Sequence record: MW822008.1
Origin: Escherichia phage BF17
Length of the DNA stretch: 64,000 nucleotides
Strand: one strand, 5' to 3'
Shown here one piece after another: positions 1 through 53,640 of this stretch. The position numbers were made by a program, and so were the translations under genes. Below the pieces are notes generated by a model, which was not told the DNA's origin, ran no database searches, and was given only the letters and a program-made list of their open reading frames with translations. Position 1 is the stretch's first letter. Every line of letters starts with the position of its first letter.

Positions 1-276
1 TTGTATATCCAATACGCTACGGTTGATGCTGGAGAATATCTCTACAGTGAAATCTATCGTTCGGTATGGATAAAGTTTTTGGATGAATTACATGAATATT
101 ACCATGATTTGTGCATAGTTCGTGATAATAAAATATACAAATTCCGCGATATTGTTAGTCATAGCGGTAAGCTACGATTGGAATTAAGTACTGATAGTGA
201 TGTTGATTGGATTGGTGTAAATTTACTGGAGTTGGAGAATGAAAAACAACTTAAAGGAAATACAAGTATTTTATAA
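1..276 (+). CDS. hypothetical small protein, possibly 5' truncated by the window edge; small-paralog family
   Basis: ORF track. TTG at position 1 may not be the true start. Size and C-terminal half resemble the neighbouring ~90-aa ORFs. Confidence 0.45.
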   Translation: MYIQYATVDAGEYLYSEIYRSVWIKFLDELHEYYHDLCIVRDNKIYKFRDIVSHSGKLRLELSTDSDVDWIGVNLLELENEKQLKGNTSIL

Positions 277-523
277 ATTCTTATACTTGTCATATGTAAA
301 AGATGAGTACTATGAAAGTGTGTATTATTTTTTATGGCAACATTACCGTACTATAGTAAGAGATTTATATATAGGAAAATCTATCATATCCAATGGTGAA
401 AAATGTATATGTACGGATGTAGTTAGTTTTAATGGTTCTTTAACACTGTGTTTCAGATGCGATAATAATAGTGGGTCATTTTCATTAAACGTATATCAGT
501 TAGAAGGAATAAATTTTGAATAA
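239..523 (+). CDS. small paralog-family protein (Y-I-G-K-x-I core)
   Basis: ORF track. Contains RDLYIGKSIISNG, a motif shared with ORFs at 709, 6308, 7781, 10748 and others. Confidence 0.6.
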   Translation: MKNNLKEIQVFYKFLYLSYVKDEYYESVYYFLWQHYRTIVRDLYIGKSIISNGEKCICTDVVSFNGSLTLCFRCDNNSGSFSLNVYQLEGINFE

Positions 524-716
524 ATGTCCATATTGTAACAGTACTCAATTAGCTCGTTTCCGTTTAGATTCAGACTGGGCGACTGGTGCTGGTGATTTCT
601 TCCCTATTAATGATGATGCGGAATACACCGAAGAACAGCACAAAGATTTTGATAAATCATGGCGACCTGACATTGAGTGCATTTATTGCCTTAATTGTGA
701 GCGTGTTCATGACTAA
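516..716 (+). CDS. small zinc-ribbon protein
   Basis: TTG start overlapping the upstream stop. Two CxxC pairs (CPYC ... CLNC). Confidence 0.55.
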   Translation: MNKCPYCNSTQLARFRLDSDWATGAGDFFPINDDAEYTEEQHKDFDKSWRPDIECIYCLNCERVHD

Positions 717-972
717 AGCTGAACTAATAGTTCATACATATAAAATGATATCAAGTACTGAGTTATCATATAGTGCAGATAATCCAGTACTGGATTATTT
801 TGTTGAATTATTGAAAGAGCATTATATTGGTAAATCACTGATTCTTAATAATATTAATTTCACGGTAAAGGATGTAGCACCTGGAAAAAACGTACTAATA
901 GTATGTGTTACTTCATCTGATAACCCAGTATACCCAATATCAATAATTTTTGAGATATTAGGAGATTTATGA
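709..972 (+). CDS. small paralog-family protein
   Basis: Internal ATG at 709 of track ORF 586..972, overlapping the upstream stop at 714..716. Contains motif EHYIGKSLILNN. Confidence 0.6.
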   Translation: MTKAELIVHTYKMISSTELSYSADNPVLDYFVELLKEHYIGKSLILNNINFTVKDVAPGKNVLIVCVTSSDNPVYPISIIFEILGDL

Positions 973-1259
973 ATATCATTTTAATGCAGAAAACATATGC
1001 TATATTGGTGAAAGATTATTCCATTACTTTCGATTCACAAGAAAGTGCTCTACATAACCTATACAAAAACGTAACACAAGAATACAGAAATATGTTTTCT
1101 GACTTAGTAGTAGGAAGGTATTTCAGTACTAGAAAATACCCAAAACTTCAAATAGTTGATGTTTCTTTTTATTTCAATGGTCATATTACTATTCATAGTT
1201 TAGACCAAGATTCAACAACGTACTTAAACTTTTCATTTGATGAGGTAACATTTTTATGA
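969..1259 (+). CDS. small paralog-family protein
   Basis: ATGA overlap with the upstream stop. Contains SDLVVGRYFS, a variant of the family motif. Confidence 0.6.
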   Translation: MNIILMQKTYAILVKDYSITFDSQESALHNLYKNVTQEYRNMFSDLVVGRYFSTRKYPKLQIVDVSFYFNGHITIHSLDQDSTTYLNFSFDEVTFL

Positions 1260-1432
1260 GAACAGTATTTTTTATCTGGAGTCTTTTTTCATTGGCAGTA
1301 CTGACAGTATGTGGGATTTGTTTCCTTTCATCAATTAATACTTGGTATATCAATTTACTATTTCCATTTGTCGGTGTTGGTTTAGGGTTTACTTTGCATA
1401 GTGTATGTAAGGATTACAATGAGAACAAATGA
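1256..1432 (+). CDS. small membrane protein (58 aa, below the track cutoff)
   Basis: My own translation: MRTVFFIWSLFSLAVLTVCGICF...FPFVGVGLGFTL, giving two hydrophobic segments. ATGA overlap with the upstream stop. Confidence 0.55.
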   Translation: MRTVFFIWSLFSLAVLTVCGICFLSSINTWYINLLFPFVGVGLGFTLHSVCKDYNENK

Positions 1433-1697
1433 AGTACTTATTGCTGAAACAATGAAGATGATTTACAATATCACGTCAGCACAGAATATGCCCTATCCAA
1501 CTAAGTCTTTATTGAGGACTGTGTATCTGGGGATAGTACAGGAGTACTACAAATCCAAGCACCGAAGCATTATTAGTGTTTATCGTGATTATGAAAGGAT
1601 TCGTATTTTATTCTGGAACAAGAATCGAGTACGTTCTGAATGTGACCTAGTGGACTTTAAATTAGAGAATCTTTATTGCTATAAACAGGGACAATAG
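1419..1697 (+). CDS. hypothetical small protein
   Basis: In-frame ATG at 1419 of track ORF 1401..1697, overlapping the stop of the 1256 ORF. Confidence 0.55.
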   Translation: MRTNEVLIAETMKMIYNITSAQNMPYPTKSLLRTVYLGIVQEYYKSKHRSIISVYRDYERIRILFWNKNRVRSECDLVDFKLENLYCYKQGQ

Positions 1698-1715
1698 TTT
1701 AATTCATGATATAAT
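1687..1715 (+). promoter_or_regulatory. promoter: AGGGAC-N17-TATAAT with a TG extension
   Basis: -35-like element at 1687..1692. TGATATAAT at 1707..1715. Gene start at 1756. Confidence 0.55.
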
Positions 1716-1755
1716 AATGGGTAAGGAACAATAATTAACACAAGGAGTGTGTGAA

Positions 1756-2484
1756 ATGCTTGACCGTATCCGTTTCGCTACAGAGATGGCGAATGAATTA
1801 AACATGGCAAATTTCCAAATGTTAACATCAGTAATGGCTGAACATGCATGTGCTTATTCTGTAAGTGGTGTGCAGTGTGGTCAGGAGAATATGTTAGCAG
1901 ATGTTTATAGTGAAGTGCAAAGTAAGCAATATAGTGTGAAGACATATAAGGATAAGTTTGTTAGTCTTTATATGAACGAAGATATTGCCGAAGACCGCAA
2001 ATTCACTGATTTTATTATTGAACGCCGAGTATCAGGTGTATCTAATCCTAATGCATCAAGCGAGGAAGTTTTTGCAGAAGTACTGAAAGATATATACGAA
2101 AATGAATTAAAAAGTAAGAATCATTACAATGTACGTGAAACTAACACAGTGCTCTTGGGATATGATGAAGACGAAGAATACTATTATTTTCGTATGACTG
2201 AAGTTCCTTTTGAATACAAATCTCCATATACAACTACAGTGAAAGAATTTACTGAAAAAAGTAAAAACTTCATGAAGCATGAAGGAAATCGTTGTAGTAT
2301 AAATGGTTATGACGAAAATGGCATTCACATTTATGAGTGGGTTCACCCAAATTGTCAGACATACACTCGTTGCTTGAAAAAACGTTATAATTTAGAAGAG
2401 CATGAATCATTCTATTTTAAAGTTAAGAAGCAAGGTTATACTCGCCCCGCTGATTCTGAATTGTTGGGTATGATATATTTCTAA
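1756..2484 (+). CDS. hypothetical protein
   Basis: ATG at 1756 preceded by AAGGAG. Promoter-like element at 1687..1715. No domain recognised. Confidence 0.7.
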   Translation: MLDRIRFATEMANELNMANFQMLTSVMAEHACAYSVSGVQCGQENMLADVYSEVQSKQYSVKTYKDKFVSLYMNEDIAEDRKFTDFIIERRVSGVSNPNASSEEVFAEVLKDIYENELKSKNHYNVRETNTVLLGYDEDEEYYYFRMTEVPFEYKSPYTTTVKEFTEKSKNFMKHEGNRCSINGYDENGIHIYEWVHPNCQTYTRCLKKRYNLEEHESFYFKVKKQGYTRPADSELLGMIYF

Positions 2485-2494
2485 GGAAACGGCT

Positions 2495-2776
2495 ATGGAT
2501 TTTTATCTACACACATGGACATACGAACAATATATTACATTATATCTTGAAATTATTAACACAGAACCTAGGTGTGGTTGTTGGTTCGCAGATATCATAA
2601 AAGAGTATGCTGACGAGTTCGAGTTTGTGTATCTTGGGTCTGATATATTTGTAAAAAGTGTAGGTAAAACCGGACGAATCACTGATATAGATTACGACAC
2701 TGTTAGTGTTAATTTCTATGTTGATTTTCCTGATACTGGCGTTGATGGTGTATATTGTCTTTATGAAATAATTTAA
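2495..2776 (+). CDS. hypothetical small protein (paralog-family-like)
   Basis: ORF track. Followed by an intrinsic terminator at 2784. Confidence 0.6.
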   Translation: MDFYLHTWTYEQYITLYLEIINTEPRCGCWFADIIKEYADEFEFVYLGSDIFVKSVGKTGRITDIDYDTVSVNFYVDFPDTGVDGVYCLYEII

Positions 2777-2783
2777 ATTCTTA

Positions 2784-2807
2784 GGCCAGCGTTTGCTGGT
2801 CTTTTTT
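2784..2807 (+). terminator. intrinsic terminator
   Basis: GGCCAGC-GTTT-GCTGGTC followed by T6. Confidence 0.7.
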
Positions 2808-2820
2808 CGCAGGTACAAAG

Positions 2821-3123
2821 ATGTTCAGTATAGATTTAATTAACAGTACTATCAAAATGTTGGCTGATTTGGTGAGACAATCCAATGGAACTTTATATCC
2901 ATCAATGTATAAAATGTTTGACCGATACATCAAGGATTGTAACATATCATTATATGGACTTACTGTTGATATAGACGATTACTATGGAATTAATACTTCA
3001 TATAAAACAGGAATTTTAATTGGTATTAATATAAAGATGGGGTATTTCCCTTATTACTGTATAGGATTACCAGATAATACTTTGGTAGAATATCCAGCCA
3101 GTACTATTAAATTAAGAGGATAA
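2821..3123 (+). CDS. hypothetical small protein
   Basis: ORF track. No domain recognised. Confidence 0.6.
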   Translation: MFSIDLINSTIKMLADLVRQSNGTLYPSMYKMFDRYIKDCNISLYGLTVDIDDYYGINTSYKTGILIGINIKMGYFPYYCIGLPDNTLVEYPASTIKLRG

Positions 3124-3130
3124 AACTAAA

Positions 3131-3709
3131 ATGAATGTATTAGAATTAAGTACTAAGCTGATTAGTATGCGTAATGAGTGGTACGATTGGTTTTATAATG
3201 GTACTGATATGAATTTTTCAAAATATCCATTTATGGAATCAGGATGTGATTCAAGATACCGCTGGTTGAGCAAAAGTGATTCTGGTTTACATATTAGAAT
3301 CGATGATAGTGGTCGAGGAATTATACACGATTTACTTCAAGTTGATCAATTCGTCCATGACAATTGGTGTGATAACGATCCATACCTTGGAAATATGATT
3401 TATATAAGTGAAGATGATTGCGTATTCGTTATCCAGCGACATGGTAATTCTATGTTTTATGTAGCAGACAGCAGTACACCAGAAGGTGCAGCAGCCGATG
3501 GACTTATGCCTAAGATTGATATATTGGAATTTGGATTACCTGAGCACTTCCAGATTAGTACTTTATACGATATTCCACCACTTGAGTTCTTTGAAGAATT
3601 TAAATTGTACTTCAATGATCTTCAAAAATTGAGTACTGATAGACGCATTGAAATAACTGTTAAGTACATGGACGGAACGAAATTAACCGATACGGGGATA
3701 GAATTTTGA
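3131..3709 (+). CDS. hypothetical protein
   Basis: ORF track. No domain recognised. Confidence 0.65.
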   Translation: MNVLELSTKLISMRNEWYDWFYNGTDMNFSKYPFMESGCDSRYRWLSKSDSGLHIRIDDSGRGIIHDLLQVDQFVHDNWCDNDPYLGNMIYISEDDCVFVIQRHGNSMFYVADSSTPEGAAADGLMPKIDILEFGLPEHFQISTLYDIPPLEFFEEFKLYFNDLQKLSTDRRIEITVKYMDGTKLTDTGIEF

Positions 3710-4395
3710 TTAAAGATTTAGATAGAATTTTATATGTACTAAGGGGTGTAATTACATTACATCCACAAATCAATCGAATTGAAAGTACATTTCAGTTGGA
3801 GTCAAGAGAAACTCCATATTCACATATATCAAATGTAGTTGGTTCACTCAGTACTGAAGACTCGTCTTACGATATTTGTGTATGTGAAGTACAACCAAGT
3901 TCGGATCTTGGATTTGCTATTTTTGATAAAAATCAAAATCTCATTAGTATGTTTCAGTGCAATAATCCTTTTTGGAAAACATGCCTGTATCCAGAGTGGG
4001 CTATGCTTGATCCAACCAAGAGTACCATTAAAGTTTATGACTCTAAAAATGATGAAGTCGTTATTGATTTAGATGAGTCAATGTCAGAGGAAGAACACTT
4101 TCAGCTAATGATGATGCGTGCTATGCCTGAATACAATGCAATGATTAACACAGTGCAATACATTAAGGATACCATGCCAGCGTTGCGTACACATGAGTTT
4201 TGTCATCCGGTATTGTATGAACATCTAGATTTAGACTTCAGTACTATTAAATTTAAAGATAGTGTTAAAAAATATATTCAAGAGAATGTTAAATTTGATT
4301 TTATTAGTACTATGAACAATAATCCAAAAACTAATTTTAGGCATCAGTACAATGAATCTTTGTCTAATGGACGTGATACCAGTTGGTGGAAATAA
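3706..4395 (+). CDS. hypothetical protein
   Basis: TTG start overlapping the upstream TGA. The alternative-frame ORF 3839..4072 was rejected. Confidence 0.6.
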   Translation: MIKDLDRILYVLRGVITLHPQINRIESTFQLESRETPYSHISNVVGSLSTEDSSYDICVCEVQPSSDLGFAIFDKNQNLISMFQCNNPFWKTCLYPEWAMLDPTKSTIKVYDSKNDEVVIDLDESMSEEEHFQLMMMRAMPEYNAMINTVQYIKDTMPALRTHEFCHPVLYEHLDLDFSTIKFKDSVKKYIQENVKFDFISTMNNNPKTNFRHQYNESLSNGRDTSWWK

Positions 4396-4396
4396 T

Positions 4397-4660
4397 ATGA
4401 ATATTCAAGATAGATTACAATTACTGTACACACTTGAACAGGCTGCTTATGATCTTGTTCGAAAAATCTCAGATGAACTACCTAAAGGAACTAAAGTTCG
4501 TGTACGTGAGATGAATTATTTTTCTGGAGTAATTGAAGAACAAGTACTAACAGTGAATAAAGTAACATACTATGAATCTGAGTTGTCTATTCAGTGTGAA
4601 TCTGATGATGGATTAATATCATATTATGGAACTGATGTAGATATAGAGGTAATAAAATGA
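4397..4660 (+). CDS. small paralog-family protein
   Basis: ATG at 4397 after GGTGGA. Contains LPKGTKVRVREMNYFSGVIE, a variant of the family core. Confidence 0.6.
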   Translation: MNIQDRLQLLYTLEQAAYDLVRKISDELPKGTKVRVREMNYFSGVIEEQVLTVNKVTYYESELSIQCESDDGLISYYGTDVDIEVIK

Positions 4661-5799
4661 CCCTTTTGCAAATATATGAAGATTTAATGCACTTATGTAA
4701 TACAAACGATGCATTCTTTTATGTGGATCATAAAAGTCCTGCTGGTGGCACGTATCGTGTATTCAGTTATCGTCTAGCATCATACACTGATTTCATGCAA
4801 CCAAATGCGTTGGAAACCCGTGGCTCTATGTGGGAAATTGATGAAGAAGGTGACATGATACGTTGTGCAGCACGTACAATGAAAAAGTTCTTCAATGCTT
4901 ACGAGAATCCTGCTACAATGTTCCCTGCTAACACCACATGCGATGACATTGCGGTAGTGATGCCTAAGTTGGATGGCTCGATCATCAGTACTTATCGTGA
5001 TAATGATGGTGAGATTCGTTGTAAATCACATACTGCATTGTATTCTGACCATGCGATTAACAGCACTCGACTTATTAACGAGAACCAGAATTTGTATCAG
5101 TACATCGACGAAGCGGAACGTTTAGGTTACACAGTTAATATGGAGTATACAAGCCCAGAGTACCGAATTGTATTACCATATCAGGTAGAACAACTGTTTG
5201 TACTGAACGTTCGTCATCGTGTGAGTGGTGAGTTGCTTTGTGGTAAAGCACTACGTGATAAGTTTCCATGTCTTGCACAGTACAGTACTAATATGACTGG
5301 AAAAGATATTCATCACACTTTTCCGGTACGAAATACCTTCCGTGAAAGCGTGGAGGAAGTTCATAAAATGCTTGATATTGAGGGTTTTGTGTGCATCCTA
5401 AATAATGGGACAATGTGTAAAATAAAGACTGACTGGTACAGTTCATTACATCTTACAAAAGATAGTATTATTATTGATTCTCATTTATATGAAGCAGTAT
5501 TAAATGGTTCAAGTGATGATTTAAAACAATTGTTCAGTACTGATGAATATGCTATGCAAAAGATATTAAGAATGGAACAATTGGTATTTTCGTGCTATAA
5601 TGCATTACAAGATGAAGTAGAAAGCTTCGTCAAGGAACACAAGCACTTGGAGCGAAAGGAATTCGCAATGAAGGTTCAGGAGTGTTTAACTAATGAACTG
5701 AATCGTCAGGGCTTGGCCTTTGCAATGTATAACAATAAGAAAGTTGATTACAAAGAGACTCTTATAAAATACATGAAAATTGTACTAAAGGATTTTTAG
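4657..5799 (+). CDS. rnlA: RNA ligase 1 (T4 RnlA-like)
   Basis: N-terminus aligns with my recollection of T4 RnlA (YRVFSYRLASYTDF, ETRGSMWE, KKFFNAYENP). Also has the nucleotidyl-transferase motif I KLDGS and a later KIKTDWY motif. Confidence 0.88.
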   Translation: MTLLQIYEDLMHLCNTNDAFFYVDHKSPAGGTYRVFSYRLASYTDFMQPNALETRGSMWEIDEEGDMIRCAARTMKKFFNAYENPATMFPANTTCDDIAVVMPKLDGSIISTYRDNDGEIRCKSHTALYSDHAINSTRLINENQNLYQYIDEAERLGYTVNMEYTSPEYRIVLPYQVEQLFVLNVRHRVSGELLCGKALRDKFPCLAQYSTNMTGKDIHHTFPVRNTFRESVEEVHKMLDIEGFVCILNNGTMCKIKTDWYSSLHLTKDSIIIDSHLYEAVLNGSSDDLKQLFSTDEYAMQKILRMEQLVFSCYNALQDEVESFVKEHKHLERKEFAMKVQECLTNELNRQGLAFAMYNNKKVDYKETLIKYMKIVLKDF

Positions 5800-5829
5800 T
5801 ACTATCTAGCCTAAGCACAAGGAGAAGTG

Positions 5830-6084
5830 ATGGCTAAACCTAAGTATAAAAATGACGGTTCCCTTTCTCCGACTGAGTTCAGGAAAATACAAGAAGAAAT
5901 CGATGAATTACAGCACAAACGCTCAATGAAAGGTGTGAAGATAAGTAAGAAACGAATCGAGAATACCTTCGGATGTAGTAGTACTGAATACAAGAAGAAA
6001 AGGAAACCAAAAGGTGTTAAGCCGAGAATACATGATGTAACTCGCTATACATCGAAACGTGAAAATAAATTTGATCCACTATAA
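5830..6084 (+). CDS. small lysine-rich basic protein
   Basis: ATG at 5830 after AAGGAG. Highly basic composition. Confidence 0.6.
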   Translation: MAKPKYKNDGSLSPTEFRKIQEEIDELQHKRSMKGVKISKKRIENTFGCSSTEYKKKRKPKGVKPRIHDVTRYTSKRENKFDPL

Positions 6085-6093
6085 GGAGTTCAT

Positions 6094-6330
6094 ATGAAAG
6101 TTGAAGTTCAGCATAGTATTGTTCAGGATATGTCAGTAGTTAAATTTCTTTCTCTGAAAGATTACTTCAGATGTATCAAGTTCCTAGAAGAATCTCAATT
6201 ACAGTGGACCCCATTAAAGTACAGTTCATCCAATGATACTGCTAGTATTCGTTGTGATGAATCTGTACTTGTGAAAATCTCCAAGCGATTTGGAGTTGGG
6301 AAATATAATGATAAACAATGCACAAAGTAA
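6094..6330 (+). CDS. hypothetical small protein
   Basis: ORF track. AGGAG lies upstream. Confidence 0.6.
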   Translation: MKVEVQHSIVQDMSVVKFLSLKDYFRCIKFLEESQLQWTPLKYSSSNDTASIRCDESVLVKISKRFGVGKYNDKQCTK

Positions 6331-6619
6331 TTTACTATATATAAAGTCAGTAGAAGCTGAAATTAAAAATTCAGTACAAACTATCGTCGATGAAATGATT
6401 GACAAATACAAGAGCAATCTTATTGGGAAGAAAGTCAGATGTTGGGATTACACATTCAAACACTGGTACGATTCCGAGATTGTGAAAGTTGATGTGAATA
6501 CTGATAGTAATGGTCTAATTAATGGTATTGCGTATATTGGTGTTTTAATACGCAAGGGAACACCACAGGAATGGCTAACTTATCATAATATAGAGCATGT
6601 TAAATTTTTAGAGGATTAA
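6308..6619 (+). CDS. small paralog-family protein
   Basis: ATG at 6308. Contains motif KSNLIGKKVRCWDY. Confidence 0.6.
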   Translation: MINNAQSNLLYIKSVEAEIKNSVQTIVDEMIDKYKSNLIGKKVRCWDYTFKHWYDSEIVKVDVNTDSNGLINGIAYIGVLIRKGTPQEWLTYHNIEHVKFLED

Positions 6620-6622
6620 AGG

Positions 6623-7555
6623 ATGCCAACTATCACACTAACAGTTGGATTGCCTGGGTGTGGTAAAACTACATGGGCAGTGCAAGAGATTAAAAACGCC
6701 AAATCCAAGACTATCAACATCAACCGTGATGATATTCGTGAATCTATGGCTGGGTCACATGATGCTTACAAATTCAACGATGCTAATGAGCAGTACGTAA
6801 CTAATTTACAGTTCAGTGCAGCAAATTCAGCAGCAGAGAATGGTTGGAACATCATCATATCCGATACAAACCTTAAACAACATTTCCGTAATCTCTGGAA
6901 AGTATGGGCTAAAGATAATGGTTATGATTACAAAGAAAAGAACTTCTATGATGATTTTGTACCTAATGAAGACCGTGGTGCAGATGTTCATGAATTCTTT
7001 AAGATTAAAGAGTTCGTAAAACTTTGTAAGAAATATAACCTCCAGCGTGAGCGTTCAGTACAAGATGATATCATTGACACAATGGCAGATACGTACTATT
7101 ATAGTAAGGCATTACACATTGGTTACTATGGTAATTCACGCGAAGCTGCTATCATCGTTGATATCGATGGAACTCTTGCTCATAAATGGGGTCGTAATCC
7201 TTACGATGAAAGTACTGTTCTTCAGGATACACCTGATGAAGAAGTTATTTTGTCTATTATCGCTGAAGCAGTTTTTCATAAACGCAAGATTATCGTCATG
7301 AGTGGGCGTACTGAAGGGTGTCGTGCTGATACCGAACAGTGGCTTAAGAATTGGGGTGTTCCTTACGATGCATTGTTTATGCGAGATATCGATGATAAAC
7401 GTCCTGATGATGTTGTAAAATTCGACCTGTACATGAAAAATGTGGTTGATCATTACGATGTTAAAAAGGTATATGATGACCGCGATCAAGTTGTATTCAT
7501 GTGGCGTAAGCTACTTGGGTTGAAAGTTTTCCAAGTGGCTGAAGGAAATTTCTAA
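6623..7555 (+). CDS. pseT: polynucleotide 5'-kinase / 3'-phosphatase (T4 PseT-like)
   Basis: N-terminal P-loop GLPGCGKTT, then the HAD phosphatase motif DIDGTLA. Size matches PseT. Terminator follows at 7563. Confidence 0.88.
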   Translation: MPTITLTVGLPGCGKTTWAVQEIKNAKSKTININRDDIRESMAGSHDAYKFNDANEQYVTNLQFSAANSAAENGWNIIISDTNLKQHFRNLWKVWAKDNGYDYKEKNFYDDFVPNEDRGADVHEFFKIKEFVKLCKKYNLQRERSVQDDIIDTMADTYYYSKALHIGYYGNSREAAIIVDIDGTLAHKWGRNPYDESTVLQDTPDEEVILSIIAEAVFHKRKIIVMSGRTEGCRADTEQWLKNWGVPYDALFMRDIDDKRPDDVVKFDLYMKNVVDHYDVKKVYDDRDQVVFMWRKLLGLKVFQVAEGNF

Positions 7556-7562
7556 TACAAAA

Positions 7563-7590
7563 GGGATCATATATTGGTCCCTTTTTCTTT
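7563..7590 (+). terminator. intrinsic terminator after pseT
   Basis: GGGATCA-TATAT-TGGTCCC followed by TTTTTCTTTT. Confidence 0.7.
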
Positions 7591-7622
7591 TAAGGTACAT
7601 TATAGTGAATGTAACAACACAG

Positions 7623-7781
7623 ATGTTATTACAAAAAGACTACTTAGAAAATATAGAACGATACTATAGATTGTCTTTGTATGAAAATAAGCATAAAAAT
7701 TATAGTTTTGATAAACTACTAAATTCCAGTACTGATGATTATCTATTTTCATCAATGTTTTATGTGAGAGGTTTATTATAA
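7623..7781 (+). CDS. hypothetical small protein (52 aa, below the track cutoff)
   Basis: My own translation: MLLQKDYLENIERYYRLSLYENKHKNY... Its TAA stop overlaps the next ATG (TAATG). Confidence 0.4.
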   Translation: MLLQKDYLENIERYYRLSLYENKHKNYSFDKLLNSSTDDYLFSSMFYVRGLL

Positions 7782-8041
7782 TGGATAAATTTCACACAGA
7801 TATAACACAGATAGGTAATCTTATCAATAGTCTAATTACTGATTTAGAAGAAAAGTACTTAGGTCGAAATGTATACGTAGAAATGTATGAAACATATGGT
7901 GTTATTGATATGATTTATTACAGTGCATTGAAGTGTGAAATACGTTTAACAGTATGTTTGTTTGAAAAAAATACATTCAACAGAAGTACTGCAATTCGCC
8001 AAGTTGGAGTTGATGATATAGAATTATACGAGGAACAATGA
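7781..8041 (+). CDS. small paralog-family protein
   Basis: Contains motif EEKYLGRNVYVEMYE. Confidence 0.6.
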   Translation: MDKFHTDITQIGNLINSLITDLEEKYLGRNVYVEMYETYGVIDMIYYSALKCEIRLTVCLFEKNTFNRSTAIRQVGVDDIELYEEQ

Positions 8042-8292
8042 TGTTTGAGCAGGACTTAGAGATATTCAAAAGTCATATTGATTACTTGACTATATTAGAA
8101 AATGATTTAACTACAAAGTACAAAGGCATTCGTGTTCTGTGCTGGTATGATGATTGGGATTATAAACGTGAACTCACGATTGATCGAATTTATTTCAGTG
8201 ACGGTGTACTAAATGTACATGGTGTAAATGATTTTGGTCATTCATATACATATTCTAATAATGCTAAATTTAAAAGGATCTACAATGAATGA
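8038..8292 (+). CDS. small paralog-family protein
   Basis: ATGATG overlap with the upstream ORF. Contains motif TTKYKGIRVLCWYDD. Confidence 0.6.
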   Translation: MMFEQDLEIFKSHIDYLTILENDLTTKYKGIRVLCWYDDWDYKRELTIDRIYFSDGVLNVHGVNDFGHSYTYSNNAKFKRIYNE

Positions 8293-8587
8293 ATATTATC
8301 ATAATTTATTCGATTACATAAAACTAATAGATGATCTTTCTTTTGAATTTCTCAGTACTGAAAAAGTTCTTGAACCTCTCTATTATGATTGTATTAGTTC
8401 ACTATGTTTAGATGAAAAAGAGATATTAGCAAACAACTTACCATCCACGGTCTGTACAATCAATGGTTCCAAGGCATTAGTGTGCGAGGTTAATTTTCAT
8501 AAATCACTTAATACAATTGTTTACAAGTTCGATAACACTTGGGTAAATCATGTAACCAGTAATATTAAATCTGTGAGATTTTTATGA
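8285..8587 (+). CDS. hypothetical small protein
   Basis: Internal ATG at 8285 of the track ORF, overlapping the upstream stop. Confidence 0.55.
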   Translation: MNEYYHNLFDYIKLIDDLSFEFLSTEKVLEPLYYDCISSLCLDEKEILANNLPSTVCTINGSKALVCEVNFHKSLNTIVYKFDNTWVNHVTSNIKSVRFL

Positions 8588-8880
8588 ATATAAAAAAATT
8601 ATTTGAACAAGTAAATTTATTGTACTGGTGTTCAGACGGTTCAGATAAGGAATATAGTGAAGTTTATTTAGAACTGTTTAGAACTGAAATTCATCAAATT
8701 CGAAGATACCTAATTGATAACAAAACTAAAGTACAAGTAAGATACCATAACGGTACTTTAAAGAATGGTGTAATTATTGGATTGATAGTTACACGAATGT
8801 CTAATAATATTAAAGTTGCAGTTAGATTAATGACTGATGATGGTGTCTACACAATAGAAGCTAGTGAGATTATATATTAA
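8584..8880 (+). CDS. small paralog-family protein
   Basis: ATGA overlap with the upstream stop. Contains the KTKVQVRYHNGTLKNGVIIG core. Confidence 0.6.
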   Translation: MNIKKLFEQVNLLYWCSDGSDKEYSEVYLELFRTEIHQIRRYLIDNKTKVQVRYHNGTLKNGVIIGLIVTRMSNNIKVAVRLMTDDGVYTIEASEIIY

Positions 8881-9186
8881 ATGGATATACAAACATTCAA
8901 TAAACTTAAGTACTATGATGATGGTTTTGCATTAATAATTAACGAACTTGATGGAATACCATACGAATATCATAATCAAGTAATGAAGATAATAAAATGT
9001 ATATGTGAAGAATTAAAAAGTATATTTAAAAATGAATATGTTTATGATTTAGGTAATAATAGCAAAAAACTATACATAAAGAAATTCTGGGGAACGCATT
9101 GCGGTTTGATGGTCGATTTAGGTTTAAGTTTAGACGATAATTCTGAATCATGTTCATTATATATAGATGAAATGCGAATATCATGA
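8881..9186 (+). CDS. hypothetical small protein
   Basis: ORF track. Starts immediately after the upstream stop. Confidence 0.6.
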   Translation: MDIQTFNKLKYYDDGFALIINELDGIPYEYHNQVMKIIKCICEELKSIFKNEYVYDLGNNSKKLYIKKFWGTHCGLMVDLGLSLDDNSESCSLYIDEMRIS

Positions 9187-9212
9187 GACGTATCAGAATT
9201 CGGTGATATAAT
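9184..9212 (+). promoter_or_regulatory. promoter: TGAGAC-N17-TATAAT with a TG extension
   Basis: TGATATAAT at 9204..9212. Gene start at 9244. Confidence 0.55.
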
Positions 9213-9243
9213 TTGATTACATCACCAATAGGGAGAAGTTGAA

Positions 9244-9570
9244 GTGAATGGTTCGTTTTTAACAATATTAGAAAAGACAACCGAGATGCTTTCTAGCTCG
9301 TTAATGCAGATTTTCAGTACTAATAATTTATACAATACCCAGGTGTTAGATTCAATTAATAATAACTATGTGGTAAGTATATCTGATGAAATATGTCCAT
9401 TTAATGCGTATTCAATTTATAGTGTAGAAGAGTTTCATATATCCGAGATTCGATGTGGTTTTGGTGCTTGGTTAGTTCTAAATGAACGTTCAGGGTTGTC
9501 TTTATACATCGAAGAAGTTAGTAAATTTATATACAAAGGAGTAGAATATGTTAACCCCAATTATTCTTAG
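9244..9570 (+). CDS. hypothetical small protein
   Basis: GTG start after GGGAGAAG. Promoter at 9184..9212. Confidence 0.55.
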   Translation: MNGSFLTILEKTTEMLSSSLMQIFSTNNLYNTQVLDSINNNYVVSISDEICPFNAYSIYSVEEFHISEIRCGFGAWLVLNERSGLSLYIEEVSKFIYKGVEYVNPNYS

Positions 9571-10201
9571 CAGTGCATATGTAATCGGTATTATTATTTC
9601 TGGTATGCTTGCATATAACTATAACCGAAGTGTTCTAGGTTATGTAGTACTTGGTACAGTACTAAGTCCAGTGATTGCCATTGGTCTTCTTGTTATGCTA
9701 GGTGAGAAAAATACAAGCTTCTTTATTACTAAAGAACTTGATAAAATCACTCCAGCACCAGAAACAGTTATTCCAGAAGTTAAAGAAGAAGTTAAAGAAG
9801 AAGTTAAAGAAGAAGTTAAAGAAGTTGAAGTTCAAATGCAAGTTAAAGTGTATAATACACTTGAAGAAACTGATCCTAAAGTTGTAGTGAATGTAGTTCC
9901 AGTCGTTGAAGATGTGAAACCAAAAGCTCCTAAAGTACAGAAAAATACTAAAACTGCAAAGAAAGCTCGTTACACTAAAGGTAAGAACAAAGGTAAATCT
10001 AAGGATGAACCACAACTAGGTGTTCATGACCATACTGCACAAATTGCAACGGCAGCGACCGCAGCAGCAATCGTAACATCACCAATCTACAACAATGATG
10101 ATTACAGTGATTATAGCCGTCACAGCAGTTCTTCCTCTGATTCTTGTTCCTATGATAGCTCTAGTTCTGATTCAAGTTCATCGTCTGGAAGTTGTGATTA
10201 A
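9548..10201 (+). CDS. membrane protein with an EVKE repeat and a Ser/Cys-rich tail
   Basis: Two N-terminal hydrophobic helices. Contains (EVKE)n and a lysine-rich stretch. The C-terminus is SSSSSDSCSYDSSSSDSSSSSGSCD. Confidence 0.65.
   Translation: MLTPIILSSAYVIGIIISGMLAYNYNRSVLGYVVLGTVLSPVIAIGLLVMLGEKNTSFFITKELDKITPAPETVIPEVKEEVKEEVKEEVKEVEVQMQVKVYNTLEETDPKVVVNVVPVVEDVKPKAPKVQKNTKTAKKARYTKGKNKGKSKDEPQLGVHDHTAQIATAATAAAIVTSPIYNNDDYSDYSRHSSSSSDSCSYDSSSSDSSSSSGSCD
9776..9823 (+). repeat. 4 x 12-bp tandem repeat GAAGTTAAAGAA (codes EVKE)
   Basis: Read directly from the sequence. In frame within ORF 9548..10201. Confidence 0.9.
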
Positions 10202-10530
10202 TGTCAATGAAACCACTAATTCAACATAATATTTTTTATAGGTCATTATTCAAAATTCAAGATGATTTTTATCAGACGTTGAGTAATGATCTTATAGGTA
10301 AAACTGTACGATATTCGGAACAATACATCAAACGTATGACAAGTGAGTATATTGACCCTGAATACGAATACGACATTGAACACATTAATCCCAATACTAG
10401 AATGAAAATCATTGAGATATTTAAGAATGGGAGAACTATAGGTGCTGAAATTGAGTACTTGAATTGTGATTGTTACATAGATACCGAGTTAAGTTTGGAT
10501 TATCTTGTTTTAGTGGATGATGAGGAATAA
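10201..10530 (+). CDS. small paralog-family protein
   Basis: Contains motif SNDLIGKTVRYSEQY. Confidence 0.6.
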   Translation: MSMKPLIQHNIFYRSLFKIQDDFYQTLSNDLIGKTVRYSEQYIKRMTSEYIDPEYEYDIEHINPNTRMKIIEIFKNGRTIGAEIEYLNCDCYIDTELSLDYLVLVDDEE

Positions 10531-10532
10531 TT

Positions 10533-10748
10533 ATGATAACATTTTTTGCAATATATGGTTTTGTAGCATTTGTTACATTTATAACCAACTTTCTAGTACT
10601 TAATTGGGGTTGTTTTAAAGATGAAATCATGATTATCATGAATCTCCAAACAGCAGCACTGATGGCTATTATTTGGCCTGTAACATTAGTATATATTTTT
10701 ATTTCACTTACCCAAGATATTATTAACAAATATAAGAGAAAGAAATAA
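10533..10748 (+). CDS. small membrane protein
   Basis: Two hydrophobic segments (FFAIYGFVAFVTFITNFLVL; AALMAIIWPVTLVYIFISL). Confidence 0.6.
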   Translation: MITFFAIYGFVAFVTFITNFLVLNWGCFKDEIMIIMNLQTAALMAIIWPVTLVYIFISLTQDIINKYKRKK

Positions 10749-10999
10749 TGTTCAACACTGACTTATCACATTTGCGATATCTTATGTCTTTGGCTGATGA
10801 TTTTATAAATGATCTGAAGCCAAAATATATTGGTCAAGAAGTACGATTAATAAACTCCAGAGGGTATGGAAAGTATATTATTACTGATATGTATATTAGT
10901 GGTGGTGAATGGCGTTTTAAAATTAATACTTATCTTAAAGATGGTTCTTTTGCTGGAACACAAGTTACTAAACACACTAATATTATATGGTTGGAGTAA
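10748..10999 (+). CDS. small paralog-family protein
   Basis: Contains motif KPKYIGQEVRLINSRGYGKYIITDMY. Confidence 0.6.
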   Translation: MFNTDLSHLRYLMSLADDFINDLKPKYIGQEVRLINSRGYGKYIITDMYISGGEWRFKINTYLKDGSFAGTQVTKHTNIIWLE

Positions 11000-11001
11000 T
11001 A

Positions 11002-11745
11002 ATGAAACACTTCTTAGAAGTAACTGTACCTGATGATAAAGATTTATACATTGTAGGTGATTTGCATGGTAATGGTAAACTATGGGATGCTACAGTGAAA
11101 GAATTTGGTATTACACACAATGATTATGTTTTCAGTGTAGGTGATATTATCGACCGTGGAGAACAAAATTCAAAGCTCCTTTTTGAATTTTTGTTCGGAG
11201 AAAATCGTTACATGATTGCGGGTAATCATGAGATGATGTGCGTTGATTCGGAAACACTTCGAGATTGGTATCATTGTTGGATAAGTAATGGTGGTGATAA
11301 ATTCCTTGATGAAGTTGGAGGAACAGGCATTCAATTCTTTCGTCAGTACTTAAAGGATCTCCCTATGATTATCCAAATCAATCACCGAGGATTGAAGATT
11401 GGGTTAGTTCATGCTGGAGTTCCGTTGGAATATACAACATGGGAACGATTTGTTAATGGGACAAAATCACTTAGTGCTGATATAATTGATAAGTGCTTGT
11501 GGGATAGAAAAACATTCGATTATTGTAGAACTAATAATACATATTATGCACCTAAGTTAGATGGAGTGCATTGTGTCTTTAGTGGACATACAGCAGTTAC
11601 AGACCCACTCATTTACGGTAATCGCATTTGGATTGATAGTCAGTTCTTGACGGGTGACTTAACTCTCGCTACTCCACAAAGTGGTGGGATGAGATACTTA
11701 CGTAAAGAAAAAGATGAGTACTCATTCAATCGTTTCAAAAGGTAA
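11002..11745 (+). CDS. Ser/Thr protein phosphatase (lambda PP-like metallophosphoesterase)
   Basis: Contains motifs GDLHGN, GDIIDRG and GNHE. ATG at 11002 follows GGAG. Confidence 0.8.
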   Translation: MKHFLEVTVPDDKDLYIVGDLHGNGKLWDATVKEFGITHNDYVFSVGDIIDRGEQNSKLLFEFLFGENRYMIAGNHEMMCVDSETLRDWYHCWISNGGDKFLDEVGGTGIQFFRQYLKDLPMIIQINHRGLKIGLVHAGVPLEYTTWERFVNGTKSLSADIIDKCLWDRKTFDYCRTNNTYYAPKLDGVHCVFSGHTAVTDPLIYGNRIWIDSQFLTGDLTLATPQSGGMRYLRKEKDEYSFNRFKR

Positions 11746-11750
11746 TAATT

Positions 11751-12020
11751 ATGCATGATGTAGTTAAAAAATATTTGAATGATAGATATATTATGAAAAA
11801 ATCTATTAATTCTATCCTAAAAGACCATGCAAATCAAATACGTGAGATTCTATCAAATAAACTTATTGGTTGTTCAGTTGAGTTCAACTACAAAAAGAAT
11901 GTCGTGAAGGTTGGAGTTATTAAACGTGTAGTTGCTGTTTATGACCAAGATGTATATGTTGAAATAGAATATGATGGTAAATTATCACAATTAAGTACTG
12001 AAGATTTAACATTTTTATAA
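11751..12020 (+). CDS. small paralog-family protein
   Basis: Contains motif SNKLIGCSVEFNYKKNVVKVGVIK. Confidence 0.6.
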   Translation: MHDVVKKYLNDRYIMKKSINSILKDHANQIREILSNKLIGCSVEFNYKKNVVKVGVIKRVVAVYDQDVYVEIEYDGKLSQLSTEDLTFL

Positions 12021-12030
12021 GGAAATAGAA

Positions 12031-12258
12031 ATGAAAGTAATTCAAGTTATGGTAGAAAAATACCAAACTGAAGATGGTCGTATTTTTGATTCAGCTAAAC
12101 AAGCTGAACACCATGAACGTATTATTTCTGGTGCACGTAAAGTATGTCCTACATGTAATGGAACACAACAAGTACCGTCAGAAGATTACCGCAGCTTTTA
12201 TGCTTGTCCACACTGTGATGGGAAAGGCTACGTAGAAAAACAAGAGGTATGGAAATGA
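12031..12258 (+). CDS. small DnaJ-type zinc-finger protein
   Basis: Contains CPTCNGTQ and CPHCDGKG, both CxxCxGxG-like repeats. Confidence 0.6.
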   Translation: MKVIQVMVEKYQTEDGRIFDSAKQAEHHERIISGARKVCPTCNGTQQVPSEDYRSFYACPHCDGKGYVEKQEVWK

Positions 12259-12668
12259 AATTGTATTGCTTAACTAATATGTACTGCCAAGGTGTCCAAG
12301 CTGGTATTCAAGCATTCCATGCTGGTGTTAAACTAATTAAAGAATATGAAGGTACTGCTTTCAGTACTATTATTGATGAATGGTACTATGAACACGAAAC
12401 TATTGTAGTACTAAATGCTGGTGGACATGATAAGTTAAATTCTTATTATAACAACCTTAGCAAACAGGGAAAAGTTCCGTTTGCCAAATTCAATGAAGCT
12501 GGATTGAATGATGCTATTACCTGTGTAGCAGTACTGTGTACGTCTGAAATGATTGAAGACATGGCTGTTATGCGTATGAATCTTCCTGCTGGTGATCAAC
12601 TAATGCAAGTAAAATATGGTGCATTGTTTGACACATTAAAAGCAATCAGCACAATGAGGACAATTTGA
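12249..12668 (+). CDS. peptidyl-tRNA hydrolase 2 (PTH2)-like fold protein
   Basis: Pattern recalls PTH2: QGVQAGIQAFHAG...W...ETIVVLNAGG...DAITCVAVL. This is similarity by eye only. Confidence 0.45.
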   Translation: MEMKLYCLTNMYCQGVQAGIQAFHAGVKLIKEYEGTAFSTIIDEWYYEHETIVVLNAGGHDKLNSYYNNLSKQGKVPFAKFNEAGLNDAITCVAVLCTSEMIEDMAVMRMNLPAGDQLMQVKYGALFDTLKAISTMRTI

Positions 12669-13878: not shown

Positions 13879-15297
13879 ATGAGCATTTTAGCAATTCTTG
13901 AAAGCATTAAAAATACTAGCAGTACTCTGGGCAAAAAGGCTATTCTTGAACAAAATAAAGATAATGTAACTTTACAAAAAGTACTGAAATATACTCTAGA
14001 CCCTTCTATCGTTAGTGGCTATAAGAAGCTCCCTGCCGCTGATGACGTATATCAACATATGACGTTAGATGAAGCAATTGATAAGCTAGAATGCATTTAC
14101 AAGCGTGATGTGACAGGAAATGCGGGGCGTGATTTCATTGCTTCAGTACTGGGTTCTGTATCTGAAGATGATCAGGAAGTTCTACGTAGAATGCTCACTA
14201 AGAACCTTGATTGTGGTATTCAGGAGAAGAACTGCAATGATGTGTTTGGTAAAGGATTCATCAAAGACGAACCATATATGCGTTGTTCTTTGATTGACAA
14301 AAAGACTGCAAAGAACATCAACTTCAAAGATTATGGTTACGCTATATCAGAAGTGAAAATGGATGGTCAGTACTTAAACCACGTTGTCATTAATGGTTCA
14401 TTAACTTCTACATCCCGTAATGGTAAACTATACGACTTCCTGGGTTGTCGTGATGGTGAGATGGCAGGTCTTGCTCACATCATCCAAAGTAAAGATGAAC
14501 GTTTTAGTAGTGGTGTAGTCTTTATGGGGGAAGGTGTAGTACTGGACAATGATGGAGAAACCATTCTCCCACGCACTACTGGCAACGGTATAATTCAGAA
14601 AGCTGGTAAAGATAGCATCAGTCAGAATGAAGCAATGCGTACTGTATTCGTTCTATGGGATGTTGTTCCATATGATGCATTTTGTGAAGGTGTATGGGAT
14701 GTAAAACGTAAAGAACGTCGCGAGATCTTAGTAGATGCAATTAACGAACTCAATAGTGATTTTGTTCGTATGGTTGGATTCCGTAAAGTTCTAAACATCA
14801 AAGAAGCATTTGAGTACAATAGTGAACTAATGAACGAAGGTGAAGAGGGTTCAGTACTGAAATGTGAAGATGGTATCTGGAAATCTCATACTTCACCTAA
14901 GCAGTTGAAAATGAAATTGAAAATGCAACTGGACTTACGTATTGTTGGTTTCAATGAAGGTGAAGGTAAACGTAAAGGAAGCCTAGGTTCTTTACAACTG
15001 GAAAGTGCTTGTGGTTCATTGAAAGTTAATGTGGGTACTGGTATCAAAGAGAAAGATGCTGAATGGACATTTAAAACCATTTGGGAAAGAATGCAAGAAC
15101 TTATTGGTAAAGTGGTTACAGTTGAGTGTAATGACATTGTATTCGACAAGCGTACTGGTGAGCCATCACTGTTCTTACCAGTGTTTATTGAATTTAGATT
15201 TGACAAAAACACTTGTGATGATTATACTCGTATCTTAGAAATTCGTGAGAGTGCTGTTGAAGTGTTCTCAAACAGTATTATTGACGCATTAGGTTAA
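13879..15297 (+). CDS. ATP-dependent DNA ligase
   Basis: Adenylation motif I SEVKMDGQY. Later motifs EGSVLK and KLKM, and the size, fit the T4 gp30 class. Confidence 0.85.
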   Translation: MSILAILESIKNTSSTLGKKAILEQNKDNVTLQKVLKYTLDPSIVSGYKKLPAADDVYQHMTLDEAIDKLECIYKRDVTGNAGRDFIASVLGSVSEDDQEVLRRMLTKNLDCGIQEKNCNDVFGKGFIKDEPYMRCSLIDKKTAKNINFKDYGYAISEVKMDGQYLNHVVINGSLTSTSRNGKLYDFLGCRDGEMAGLAHIIQSKDERFSSGVVFMGEGVVLDNDGETILPRTTGNGIIQKAGKDSISQNEAMRTVFVLWDVVPYDAFCEGVWDVKRKERREILVDAINELNSDFVRMVGFRKVLNIKEAFEYNSELMNEGEEGSVLKCEDGIWKSHTSPKQLKMKLKMQLDLRIVGFNEGEGKRKGSLGSLQLESACGSLKVNVGTGIKEKDAEWTFKTIWERMQELIGKVVTVECNDIVFDKRTGEPSLFLPVFIEFRFDKNTCDDYTRILEIRESAVEVFSNSIIDALG

Positions 15298-31185: not shown

Positions 31186-31550
31186 ATAGTAAATTGGAGA
31201 AACTAATCGAAGAATTACGCCAGATGCCACCTATTGAACAAGTAGGAAATTACAAACGGTATCGTGTTATTGCTCGTGCACTTGATAAAAAAGGTAGAGT
31301 ACTGGCAACTCGCACAAATTCTTATACACAGACTCACCCAGTACAGAAGGGTTTCGCCATTCGTGCTGGGCGACCGCAAGGTGAGTTTCTTCATGCTGAA
31401 ATTTCATGTTTACTGGCTGCTCGTGCTGATGTTCATACTTTACTGATTGCACGGATAAGTAAAGATGGAATTCCTGTTCCGGCTAAACCATGTGAAATTT
31501 GCTCATTAGCAATAAAAGAATATGGGGTGAAAGAGATTATCCACACATGA
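31182..31550 (+). CDS. cytidine/deoxycytidylate-deaminase-fold zinc enzyme (second deaminase)
   Basis: Contains HAE (FLHAEISCL) and PCEIC zinc motifs. The protein is compact at 122 aa. Confidence 0.7.
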   Translation: MNSKLEKLIEELRQMPPIEQVGNYKRYRVIARALDKKGRVLATRTNSYTQTHPVQKGFAIRAGRPQGEFLHAEISCLLAARADVHTLLIARISKDGIPVPAKPCEICSLAIKEYGVKEIIHT

Positions 31551-31768
31551 AAATTGAAAGATATGCTAAGCATACTGTTGGGTGTGTAAATGATATATTC
31601 TATTATTATATTTTTGCACCTGAACTACGTTTTCAAATCACAACATACAATGATGGCAGATTTAAAGATACAAACTTCCTCATAACCGACTTAGCAAAGT
31701 ATGCGAATACAGAACATTTTAATCATTTAGTATTTGTGTACTGTATACCAAACCCAAATAAAAAGTAG
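31547..31768 (+). CDS. hypothetical small protein
   Basis: ATGA overlap at 31547. Confidence 0.55.
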   Translation: MKIERYAKHTVGCVNDIFYYYIFAPELRFQITTYNDGRFKDTNFLITDLAKYANTEHFNHLVFVYCIPNPNKK

Positions 31769-38578: not shown

Positions 38579-38589
38579 AGGATTACATA

Positions 38590-39177: not shown

Positions 39178-39193
39178 ATTAAGGAAAAGAAAG

Positions 39194-42557: not shown

Positions 42558-42563
42558 TGAGGA

Positions 42564-52969: not shown

Positions 52970-52999
52970 GGTGAGTCGCTATGACTCTCCTTTTCTTTT
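52970..52999 (+). terminator. intrinsic terminator after the Dps-like gene
   Basis: GGTGAGTC-GCTAT-GACTCTCC (one mismatch) followed by TTTTCTTTT. Confidence 0.6.
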
Positions 53000-53010
53000 G
53001 GAGAAATAAT

Positions 53011-53628: not shown

Positions 53629-53640
53629 AAGAGGTTGAAC

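Follow-up and report, generated by a model that had tools for sequence, protein, structure and literature searches.

About 22 small open reading frames (ORFs) annotated without function occupy the gaps among the genes for an RnlA RNA ligase, a polynucleotide kinase/phosphatase (Pnk), a calcineurin-like phosphatase, a PTH2-like peptidyl-tRNA hydrolase, and a DNA ligase at the beginning of a 64,000-nucleotide stretch of Escherichia phage BF17 (record MW822008.1; this whole stretch is referred to as the window). A sequence-only reading of the first 12,020 bases had claimed that most of these ORFs belong to one tandem family with at least 15 paralogs and a shared motif. The locus therefore raises the question of whether such a family exists, how far it extends, and what its proteins may do. 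The present analysis placed ten window genes in two sequence-supported groups, families A and B, and all ten motif examples quoted in that reading could be assigned to them (ORF 4397 as a probable member). Thus, a paralog family sharing the motif was retained, but it is smaller than claimed. We consider it fairly probable that the approximately 14 genes per genome are two diverged branches of a single superfamily formed by local duplication, and that they encode binding modules probably aimed at host proteins.

The first 12,020 bases showed 99.3% identity to Escherichia phage PBECO4 (NC_027364, positions 77,835-89,830, reverse strand) and 97-99% identity to 121Q, phAPEC6, G17, and other ~350-kb Asteriusvirus jumbo coliphages; the G+C content of the genome is 30-36%. 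Every gene in the first 12 kb lies on the plus strand, and the genes are closely packed, with frequent stop/start overlaps (ATGA, TAATG) and a Shine-Dalgarno-like sequence before most of the small ones. The small plus-strand ORFs were found at the coordinates reported for them. In gene-wide pairwise comparisons with the loci of EC.P1 and UE-S1, the ratio of nonsynonymous to synonymous substitution rates (dN/dS) was below 1 for every small ORF (range 0.03-0.6), with most candidates at 0.1-0.35 and the neighboring enzymes at 0.04-0.10. Because of these ratios and the tight operon-like packing, the small ORFs were regarded as real genes.

Identification of families A and B

Relationships were sought in a pool of ORFs from the window, the upstream flank in PBECO4 (L001), and six distant Rak2-like relatives (L003-L008; RnlA about 58% identical). 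The families were defined by BLAST and by iterative searches with hidden Markov models (HMMs) started from single seeds, with reversed-sequence decoys as the control. BLAST among the window ORFs was rejected as an arbiter of membership, its sensitivity being too low. Each member was scored by a profile built from the remaining members and compared with decoys (leave-one-out), and 67 small proteins were compared all-against-all with HHalign (1,508 comparisons; best P expected by chance about 7e-4). The HHalign tests used one profile for family A (A3) and one for family B (A4), and profile scores were controlled with 38 small ORFs located elsewhere in the window and with 67 reversed decoy ORFs. 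These comparisons revealed a strong core of family A and a hub, ORF 10748, in family B, whereas several members scored at the level of decoys.

Family A forms a tight tandem array composed of PBECO4 gp143, gp142, gp141, and gp140 (window 1-276) and ORFs 239-523, 709-972, and 969-1259. Its first gene, gp143, begins about 900 nt ahead of the window, and gp141-gp143 all lie just upstream of position 1. The ORF at 1-276 is N-terminally truncated, its real start being 36 nt upstream of the window; it was 98% identical to the PBECO4 flank (L001:2965-3276), and its leave-one-out E value was 1e-8. For ORF 239-523 this value was 2e-11, with dN/dS of 0-0.07. Altogether, five of the seven members passed the leave-one-out test, with E values of 5e-8 to 2e-11 in the core and 1e-3 for gp142. 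The two divergent members, ORFs 709 (E=0.32) and 969 (E of about 0.3), were not significant in this test and were recruited by iteration. ORF 709-972 matched ORF 239 in a pairwise HHalign comparison (P=4.8e-5) and is full-length in the A3 alignment, and ORF 969-1259 was detected by a five-member family A profile with E=0.002 (best decoy 0.0097). The family A alignment was coherent across its full length, and the iterative search recruited no decoys. HHalign P values of the window ORFs against A3 ranged from 3.5e-5 (ORF 1-276) to 6e-37, the profile already containing these ORFs or near-identical orthologs.

ORF 239-523 is unannotated in the PBECO4 RefSeq record, where it falls in the gap between gp140 and gp139; it is annotated in EC.P1, and GGAG precedes its ATG. 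The array is interrupted by a non-member, PBECO4 gp139 (516-716), a 66-aa protein with two cysteine pairs (CPYC...CLNC) and no Pfam match. Small ORFs located after Pnk in the Rak2-like relatives were rejected as members of family A, since they appeared in one iterative run only, through profile drift; searches of L003-L008 with ortholog-group profiles yielded nothing above decoys.

Family B consists of ORFs 6308, 7781, 8038, 10201, 10748, 11751, and probably 4397, interleaved with the genes for RnlA, Pnk, and the metallophosphatase, and of gp186 elsewhere in the genome. ORF 10748-10999 (leave-one-out E=2.3e-5) was the hub in the all-against-all comparison, with long matches at P of 1e-4 to 2e-3, namely to ORF 7781 (P=1.3e-4, 55 columns), ORF 8038 (P=5e-4, 51 columns), ORF 6308 (P=7e-4, 65 columns), and ORF 10201 (P=2e-3, 63 columns). 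Leave-one-out was passed by two or three of the six members. ORF 6308-6619 gave E=6.6e-4, and ORF 10201-10530 was borderline (E=4e-3, best decoy 0.023). ORF 7781-8041 had a reciprocal single-seed match with ORF 10748 and also matched A3 (P=2-3e-3 over 48 columns). The weakest member was ORF 8038-8292 (0.56, not significant), and ORF 11751-12020, which was placed in B, reached only 0.016 within this family and also fitted A3.

The probable member, ORF 4397-4660, starts at GTG 4373 in RefSeq, and the ATG at 4397 suits the N-terminus of the family. Together with its diverged orthologs, it matched A4 with P=8.3e-4, residues 1-36 aligning to profile positions 1-34, from Met1 through the helix and the junction to the first strand; in a genome-wide HMMER search it had E=0.022 (best decoy 0.74). 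The B profile also detected proteins on which it had not been trained: PBECO4 gp186 (P=1.6e-6) and two divergent alleles, that of ORF 6308 in UE-S1 (37% identical, P=1e-5) and that of ORF 10201 in EC.P1 (44% identical, P=7e-5). Family B is thus genuine yet loosely knit.

Among the members, only ORF 8038 had relatives in the Rak2-like phages that BLAST could detect. These are proteins of about 130 aa with 29-30% identity (L003:442-840, BLAST 3e-5, and orthologs in L004, L006, L007, and L008), which have no Pfam match and are located at another genomic position. ORF 31499-31768 was considered as a member outside the region and rejected: it matched ORF 10748 pairwise (P=6e-4), yet its profile P values were 0.017-0.12, and it was absent from the HMMER census.

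A comparison with existing classifications showed that no curated Pfam family matched the small ORFs above its cut-off, the best being KOW for ORF 2495 (E=0.11, 12.9 vs. 22.3 bits), and a sequence search of the Protein Data Bank (PDB) returned no relatives of the family proteins. In PHROGs, nearly every small ORF falls into a separate tiny family. Only ORFs 1-276 (E=2e-35) and 239-523 (E=1.6e-4) share one, phrog_21004 (function unknown), and the remaining members are spread over about 12 others, so that the putative superfamily would be wider than any existing cluster. A description of this family was not found in the literature.

Predicted structures of the two families

AlphaFold2 (AF2) models were obtained for one representative of each family with the respective family alignment. 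The model of the ORF 239-523 product (model A) had a predicted local distance difference test score (pLDDT) of 88.4 and a predicted template modeling score (pTM) of 0.75. It contains helices 5-21 and 26-44, Gly46, and strands 48-51, 54-64, 67-74, and 80-84, i.e., four strands plus a short helix. The model of the ORF 10748-10999 product (model B; pLDDT 91.6, pTM 0.76) has one helix (2-27), Gly29, strands 31-34, 42-51, 54-62, and 68-75, a short helix, and strand 79-81. Model B is a barrel of five antiparallel strands, the last of them preceded by a short helix, as in SH3/Tudor-like domains, and a structural likeness of the barrel to solved members of this fold was found. In both models, the motif sits exactly at the junction of helix, glycine, and first β-strand.

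The two representatives point to a shared plan, in which one or two N-terminal helices and a glycine would be followed by a small SH3/Tudor-like β-barrel. The consensus at the end of the helices would be ...[KE]-Y-[IL]-G-[KR]-x-[VI]; its glycine is predicted to break the helix and the next residues to make strand β1. The slurp01 ortholog of ORF 969 (A0A1C3S6P8) also fitted model A, with a template modeling (TM) score of 0.76-0.78 over 98 columns. A search of BFVD with model A retrieved family A proteins over the whole or nearly the whole length; otherwise, the matches were stretches of about 50 residues in small β-barrel phage proteins (DUF1653, DUF4222, KOW).

These models agree with the earlier description of a helical N-terminal half followed by β segments, and they place the motif at the transition from helix to β1. 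However, the statement that most of the small ORFs share one architecture goes beyond the evidence, as this architecture was seen in two AF2 models. The remark that no known domain could be assigned holds for curated Pfam families; nevertheless, the fold itself is recognizable as a small SH3/Tudor-like barrel.

Probable common origin of families A and B

Several results linked the two families. An HHalign comparison of A3 with A4 gave P=2.3e-4, and its 60 aligned columns run in register from the last helix through to the C-terminal end. The third-best match of model B in BFVD was the 121Q ortholog of the family A ORF 239 (TM 0.57-0.60, 76/78 residues); such a rank would be very unlikely for unrelated proteins, because BFVD has only about four family A entries. 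ORF 11751 forms a bridge, since it also matched A3 with P=3.9e-4 over 37 columns, or 1.5e-4 over 59 columns with an extra ortholog. The cross-family P values were below those of the 38 background small ORFs (p=0.004) and of the reversed decoys (p=0.001). On the strength of the profile alignment, the BFVD rank, the bridging ORF, and the comparison with controls, a common origin of A and B is likely, although not proven. The superfamily would then consist of small, mostly acidic accessory proteins of 83-109 aa that arose by repeated local duplication within the Asteriusvirus lineage.

The genomic arrangement is in line with this. Of approximately 14 members, 13 lie within about 15 kb, and the outlier, gp186, is about 23 kb away. 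The family is therefore largely tandem, as had been proposed, but it is not confined to the span of 1-12,020, given its start ahead of the window and this distant member.

An alternative explanation, which we hold to be unlikely, is that two or more unrelated ORFan families converged on a helix plus β-barrel and that Y-I-G-K is a generic helix-cap/β1 junction. A number of observations favor it and weigh against a single superfamily. The remote-homology clustering of PHROGs separates nearly every member, direct cross-family profile matches were weak (median P of 0.04), and the leave-one-out scores of three of the six family B members (7781, 11751, and 8038) were at decoy level. The link between A and B consists of statistics at P of about 1e-4 and one cross-match of a model with BFVD. 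In addition, A has two N-terminal helices, whereas B has one. The OB domain of DNA ligase, which is unrelated, starts with ELIGKVVTV and thus has the same junction motif, so part of the signal shared by A and B may be structural convergence. Finally, SH3-like barrels are very common in small phage proteins, with more than 1,300 BFVD matches at E<=10. However, convergence does not readily account for an alignment that stays in register over 60 columns, for a family A protein ranking third in the whole of BFVD at near full length, for the position of ORF 11751 between the families, or for the crowding of 13/14 members into about 15 kb when the genome measures 348 kb; moreover, control sequences never scored this well. 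We thus prefer a single superfamily with two diverged branches.

Extent of the proposed superfamily

The claim of at least 15 paralogs among the ORFs of the first 12 kb was not borne out: about 14 per genome were supported, and eight further candidates were not individually detectable. These eight are ORFs 1419, 2495, 2821, 8285, 8584, 8881, and 9244 and, originally, 4373 (the GTG start of ORF 4397). ORF 1419-1697, beside the family A array, is possibly a degenerate family A gene (HHalign vs. A3 P=1.5e-3 to 3.8e-3, first 19 residues only). Weak signals were also obtained for ORFs 8285-8587 (vs. A3 P=6-9e-3 over 52 columns; merged profile P=3.5e-3) and 8584-8880 (vs. A3 P=7-8e-3 over 23 columns). 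ORF 2495-2776 had no individual support (P>=0.28 vs. A3 and A4), its best pairwise match being gp142 (P=2e-3). Membership was likewise unsupported for ORFs 2821-3123 (P of at least 0.046), 8881-9186 (P of at least 0.034; negative with a helix-1 sub-profile), and 9244-9570 (P of at least 0.33).

It could nevertheless be supposed that all of the ~85-110-aa ORFs, 15 or more and including the seven just described, form one superfamily that has diverged past sequence detection. As a group, the eight candidates scored above background against the A and B profiles (Mann-Whitney p=0.006-0.007; aligned length p=0.0004), with p=0.006 relative to the 38 background small ORFs and p=0.003 relative to decoys. 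P values below 0.01 were reached by 4/8 candidates as compared with 0/38 background and 0/67 decoy ORFs, and no such excess was seen for the region's small ORFs outside the candidate set (p=0.31-0.46). On the other hand, the aggregate score of each unassigned ORF did not exceed the background maximum, and ORFs 2495, 2821, 8881, and 9244 remained at P>=0.03 against all profiles. An N-terminal likeness perceived by eye was undetected by the HMMER sub-profile of helix 1, which also missed ORF 1419. We regard so wide a family as quite improbable. Some of the eight candidates may belong to the family; the number of at least 15 is not established. Two attempts to enlarge the family were abandoned. 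For the shared N-terminal element MN.(Q/K)D.Q..Y, seen in ORFs 4397, 8584, and 8881, the sub-profile found family A only, and a merged A+B profile rescued no further candidates. A comparison of Chou-Fasman propensities between N- and C-terminal halves was likewise uninformative, since even the proven members did not stand out from background (p=0.2).

The junction motif itself was also counted in a loose form, [YL][ILVK]G[KRQCI].[IVLF]: the first 12 kb, encoding 3,963 aa, contained 9 matches, as compared with 3 in the 16,406 aa encoded by the remainder of the window. Since this form was chosen with the sequences in view, its count is circular when taken by itself and was not relied upon. Another idea is that motif and family merely reflect an AT-rich composition, with K/I/Y/N-rich ORFs, or that the ORFs are spurious. 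It could draw on the low G+C content, the post hoc pattern, and the no more than marginal BLAST matches among window ORFs, but it is effectively refuted by the controls, since residue shuffles gave 0.54 matches, no reversed decoy was recruited to family A or B (the sole recruit being the own reverse of the singleton ORF 8881), dN/dS was below 1, both AF2 models were confident, and leave-one-out E values in family A were as low as 2e-11.

Distribution and variability among strains

Profile searches of 5.8 billion proteins yielded 31 clusters for family A and 33 for family B only, and every match with a named source was an E. coli or Salmonella phage or an E. coli assembly; many of the matches were on contigs of about 350 kb. 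When 1.84 billion representatives were searched exhaustively with HMMER for the B profile, 8 proteins were returned, six of which were already among the results of the 33-cluster search. In the Rak2-like relatives, the small ORFs found in the syntenic slots are different ones, for which no relationship to the family could be detected, and a census of 1,025 ORFs (50-160 aa, both strands) in the 348-kb PBECO4 genome found no further members. As judged by these searches, the family appears to occur only in Asteriusvirus and hence to be lineage-specific.

Within this lineage, the gene content varied between strains. The slot of ORF 6308 (window 6311-6623) is hypervariable: in 121Q, UE-S1 (L010:12308-12883), and a metagenomic relative (L018:11941-12516), it is replaced by a 585-bp cassette of two genes. 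The first is a family B allele with 32-37% identity, and the second, an additional gene of 84 aa, contains a motif-like KEYTGKCIL and is not significantly related. The EC.P1 allele of ORF 10201 was only 44% identical. In Salmonella phage SD-6_S16, one protein combines the N-terminal two-thirds of gp142 with the C-terminal part of gp141, which is exactly what unequal recombination inside a tandem array would yield. Synonymous divergence (dS) varied from 0.02 to 1.3 from gene to gene, indicating that the strains are recombination mosaics. The metagenomic relative L018 was also added to the profiles; it is itself a mosaic, mostly 80-98% identical, and little power was gained.

Selection on the family is purifying but relaxed. 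The restriction to Asteriusvirus, the cassette swap, the divergent alleles, the hybrid gene, and dN/dS of about 0.1-0.35 are consistent with an arms-race or accessory role, without being proof of it.

Possible function

The conserved residues are limited to the core and the turns (glycine, hydrophobic residues, and one aspartate). No catalytic-looking constellation was recognized among the conserved positions, and no known enzyme family was matched. The members are mostly acidic, with a mean pI of 5.9 as compared with 7.0 for background small ORFs. Because the proteins are acidic, retain only glycine, hydrophobic residues, and one aspartate, and match no enzyme family, we infer that they most likely act as stoichiometric binding modules, with a stable scaffold and diversified surfaces. 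Their probable targets would be host proteins, bound in the course of infection for host takeover or counter-defense. A role in host interaction or anti-defense is thus plausible, as far as it can be read from the sequences.

Two points speak on the opposite side. No gene had dN/dS above 1, so the positive selection anticipated for an arms race was not seen in these gene-wide pairwise comparisons of few, mosaic sequences. The assignment to an early region found no backing either: sigma-70-like sites in the region numbered 66, as compared with 72.7±9.2 in shuffles, and were thus not enriched. A literature search found no Asteriusvirus transcriptome. Only two convincing intrinsic terminator-like hairpins were observed on the plus strand in the 12 kb, at 2783-2802 (after ORF 2495) and at 7559-7585 (after Pnk), which suggests three long co-transcribed blocks.

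As context only, the neighborhood of RnlA, Pnk, the PTH2-like hydrolase, and the phosphatase recalls the tRNA-repair counter-defense module of T4 (Amitsur et al., 1987, as cited in PMC7247149).

Neighboring genes and other repeated genes

The genes among which the family is dispersed encode RnlA (4657-5799, plus strand), Pnk (6623-7555, plus strand), the calcineurin-like phosphatase (10987-11745, plus strand), the PTH2-like peptidyl-tRNA hydrolase (12249-12668, plus strand; Pfam 25.2 bits, cut-off 23), and DNA ligase (13879-15297). Beside the PTH2-like hydrolase, within 12031-12668 on the plus strand, lies a gene for a 75-aa zinc-finger protein with CXXCXGXG (anti-TRAP/DnaJ-type, slightly under the Pfam cut-off). 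Together with RnlA and Pnk, these two proteins extend the RNA/tRNA-repair theme next to the family.

The protein encoded at 9548-10201 (plus strand) has a hydrophobic N-terminal region and a Ser/Asp-rich tail. Positions 9775-9824 within this gene form a perfect 4.2-copy repeat of the 12-nt unit AGAAGTTAAAGA, encoding EVKE repeats; the PBECO4 copy of the gene is 24 nt shorter, and the identity of the protein among strains is just 59-79%. EC.P1 (L009:7762-8685) carries an insertion of about 920 bp between the orthologs of ORFs 1419 and 1747, encoding a 307-aa protein absent from the window. The sole Pfam match of this protein was a weak one to CoiA_N (E=0.004), and it may be the product of a mobile nuclease-type gene.

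Further paralogs were observed elsewhere in the window, all on the plus strand. Three adjacent genes at 35882-41923 encode proteins of 898, 195, and 939 aa with a common C-terminal module (BLAST E of 1e-62 to 1e-15), and three tandem paralogs of ~170-190 aa are located at 41991-43591 (BLAST E of 1e-13 to 0.04). Two pairs were also found, 52981/54364 within 52981-54951 (E=2e-7) and the adjacent 61002/61402 within 61002-61824 (E=8e-7). Outside the window, PBECO4 157,841-170,100 contains ten tandem RCC1-like ("regulator of chromosome condensation") genes, gp286-gp296, and gp149-gp248 form a run of about 100 consecutive hypothetical genes immediately upstream of the window.

Comparison with known systems

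In these 350-kb coliphages, about 83% of genes lack a known function. The present results would join 13-14 singleton hypothetical proteins in one fold-defined superfamily, with its limits and its swapping between strains mapped. In this way, a block of ORFans becomes a tractable target for experiments, and the annotation is improved, including one gene missing from the PBECO4 RefSeq record. Should binding to host proteins be found, the family would provide a compact source of new inhibitors or anti-defense factors.

The closest known barrels are those of the CarD/TRCF RID (PDB 4l5g, 9e7v), the C-terminal Tudor domain of UvrD/PcrA (7egs, 5dma), and KOW/EF-P domain I. The family proteins are only 4-12% identical to them and have no Pfam match at threshold. 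Unlike these domains, they are stand-alone proteins, in which a helix or helical hairpin at the N-terminus packs against the barrel. The CarD/TRCF RID and UvrD/PcrA Tudor barrels dock on bacterial RNA polymerase. Since the structural neighbors CarD, Mfd, and UvrD use the β lobe of RNA polymerase, it can be speculated from the models that the family proteins are diversified Tudor-like adaptors on a host hub such as this lobe, each paralog being tuned to a host variant or defense sensor; we rate this as very improbable. If true, they would represent a new class of host-takeover or anti-defense scaffold that evolves by cassette exchange beside a tRNA-repair module.

The DUF1653, DUF4222, and KOW phage proteins retrieved from BFVD resemble the family in being uncharacterized accessory genes of the same size class. 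Their structural match is partial (about 50 residues, TM 0.45-0.5), and they differ in having neither the N-terminal helical extension, nor a detectable sequence relation, nor a multi-copy array.

Tandem paralog expansion has already been recognized in jumbo phages, for which a finding of this type is routine; the fold is common, and it is the family itself that had not been described before. Phage CBB has 22 paralogous ORFs (PMC5259590), and some jumbo phages carry arrays of more than 30 similar genes (PMC13282480). In these systems, as well as in gp286-gp296 of PBECO4, evolution has followed the same mode as in the present family: accessory genes are duplicated locally and diverge, and strains differ in their gene content. 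In comparison with all of them, the family described here is far more diverged (15-30% identity) and is split into singletons by the existing classifications.

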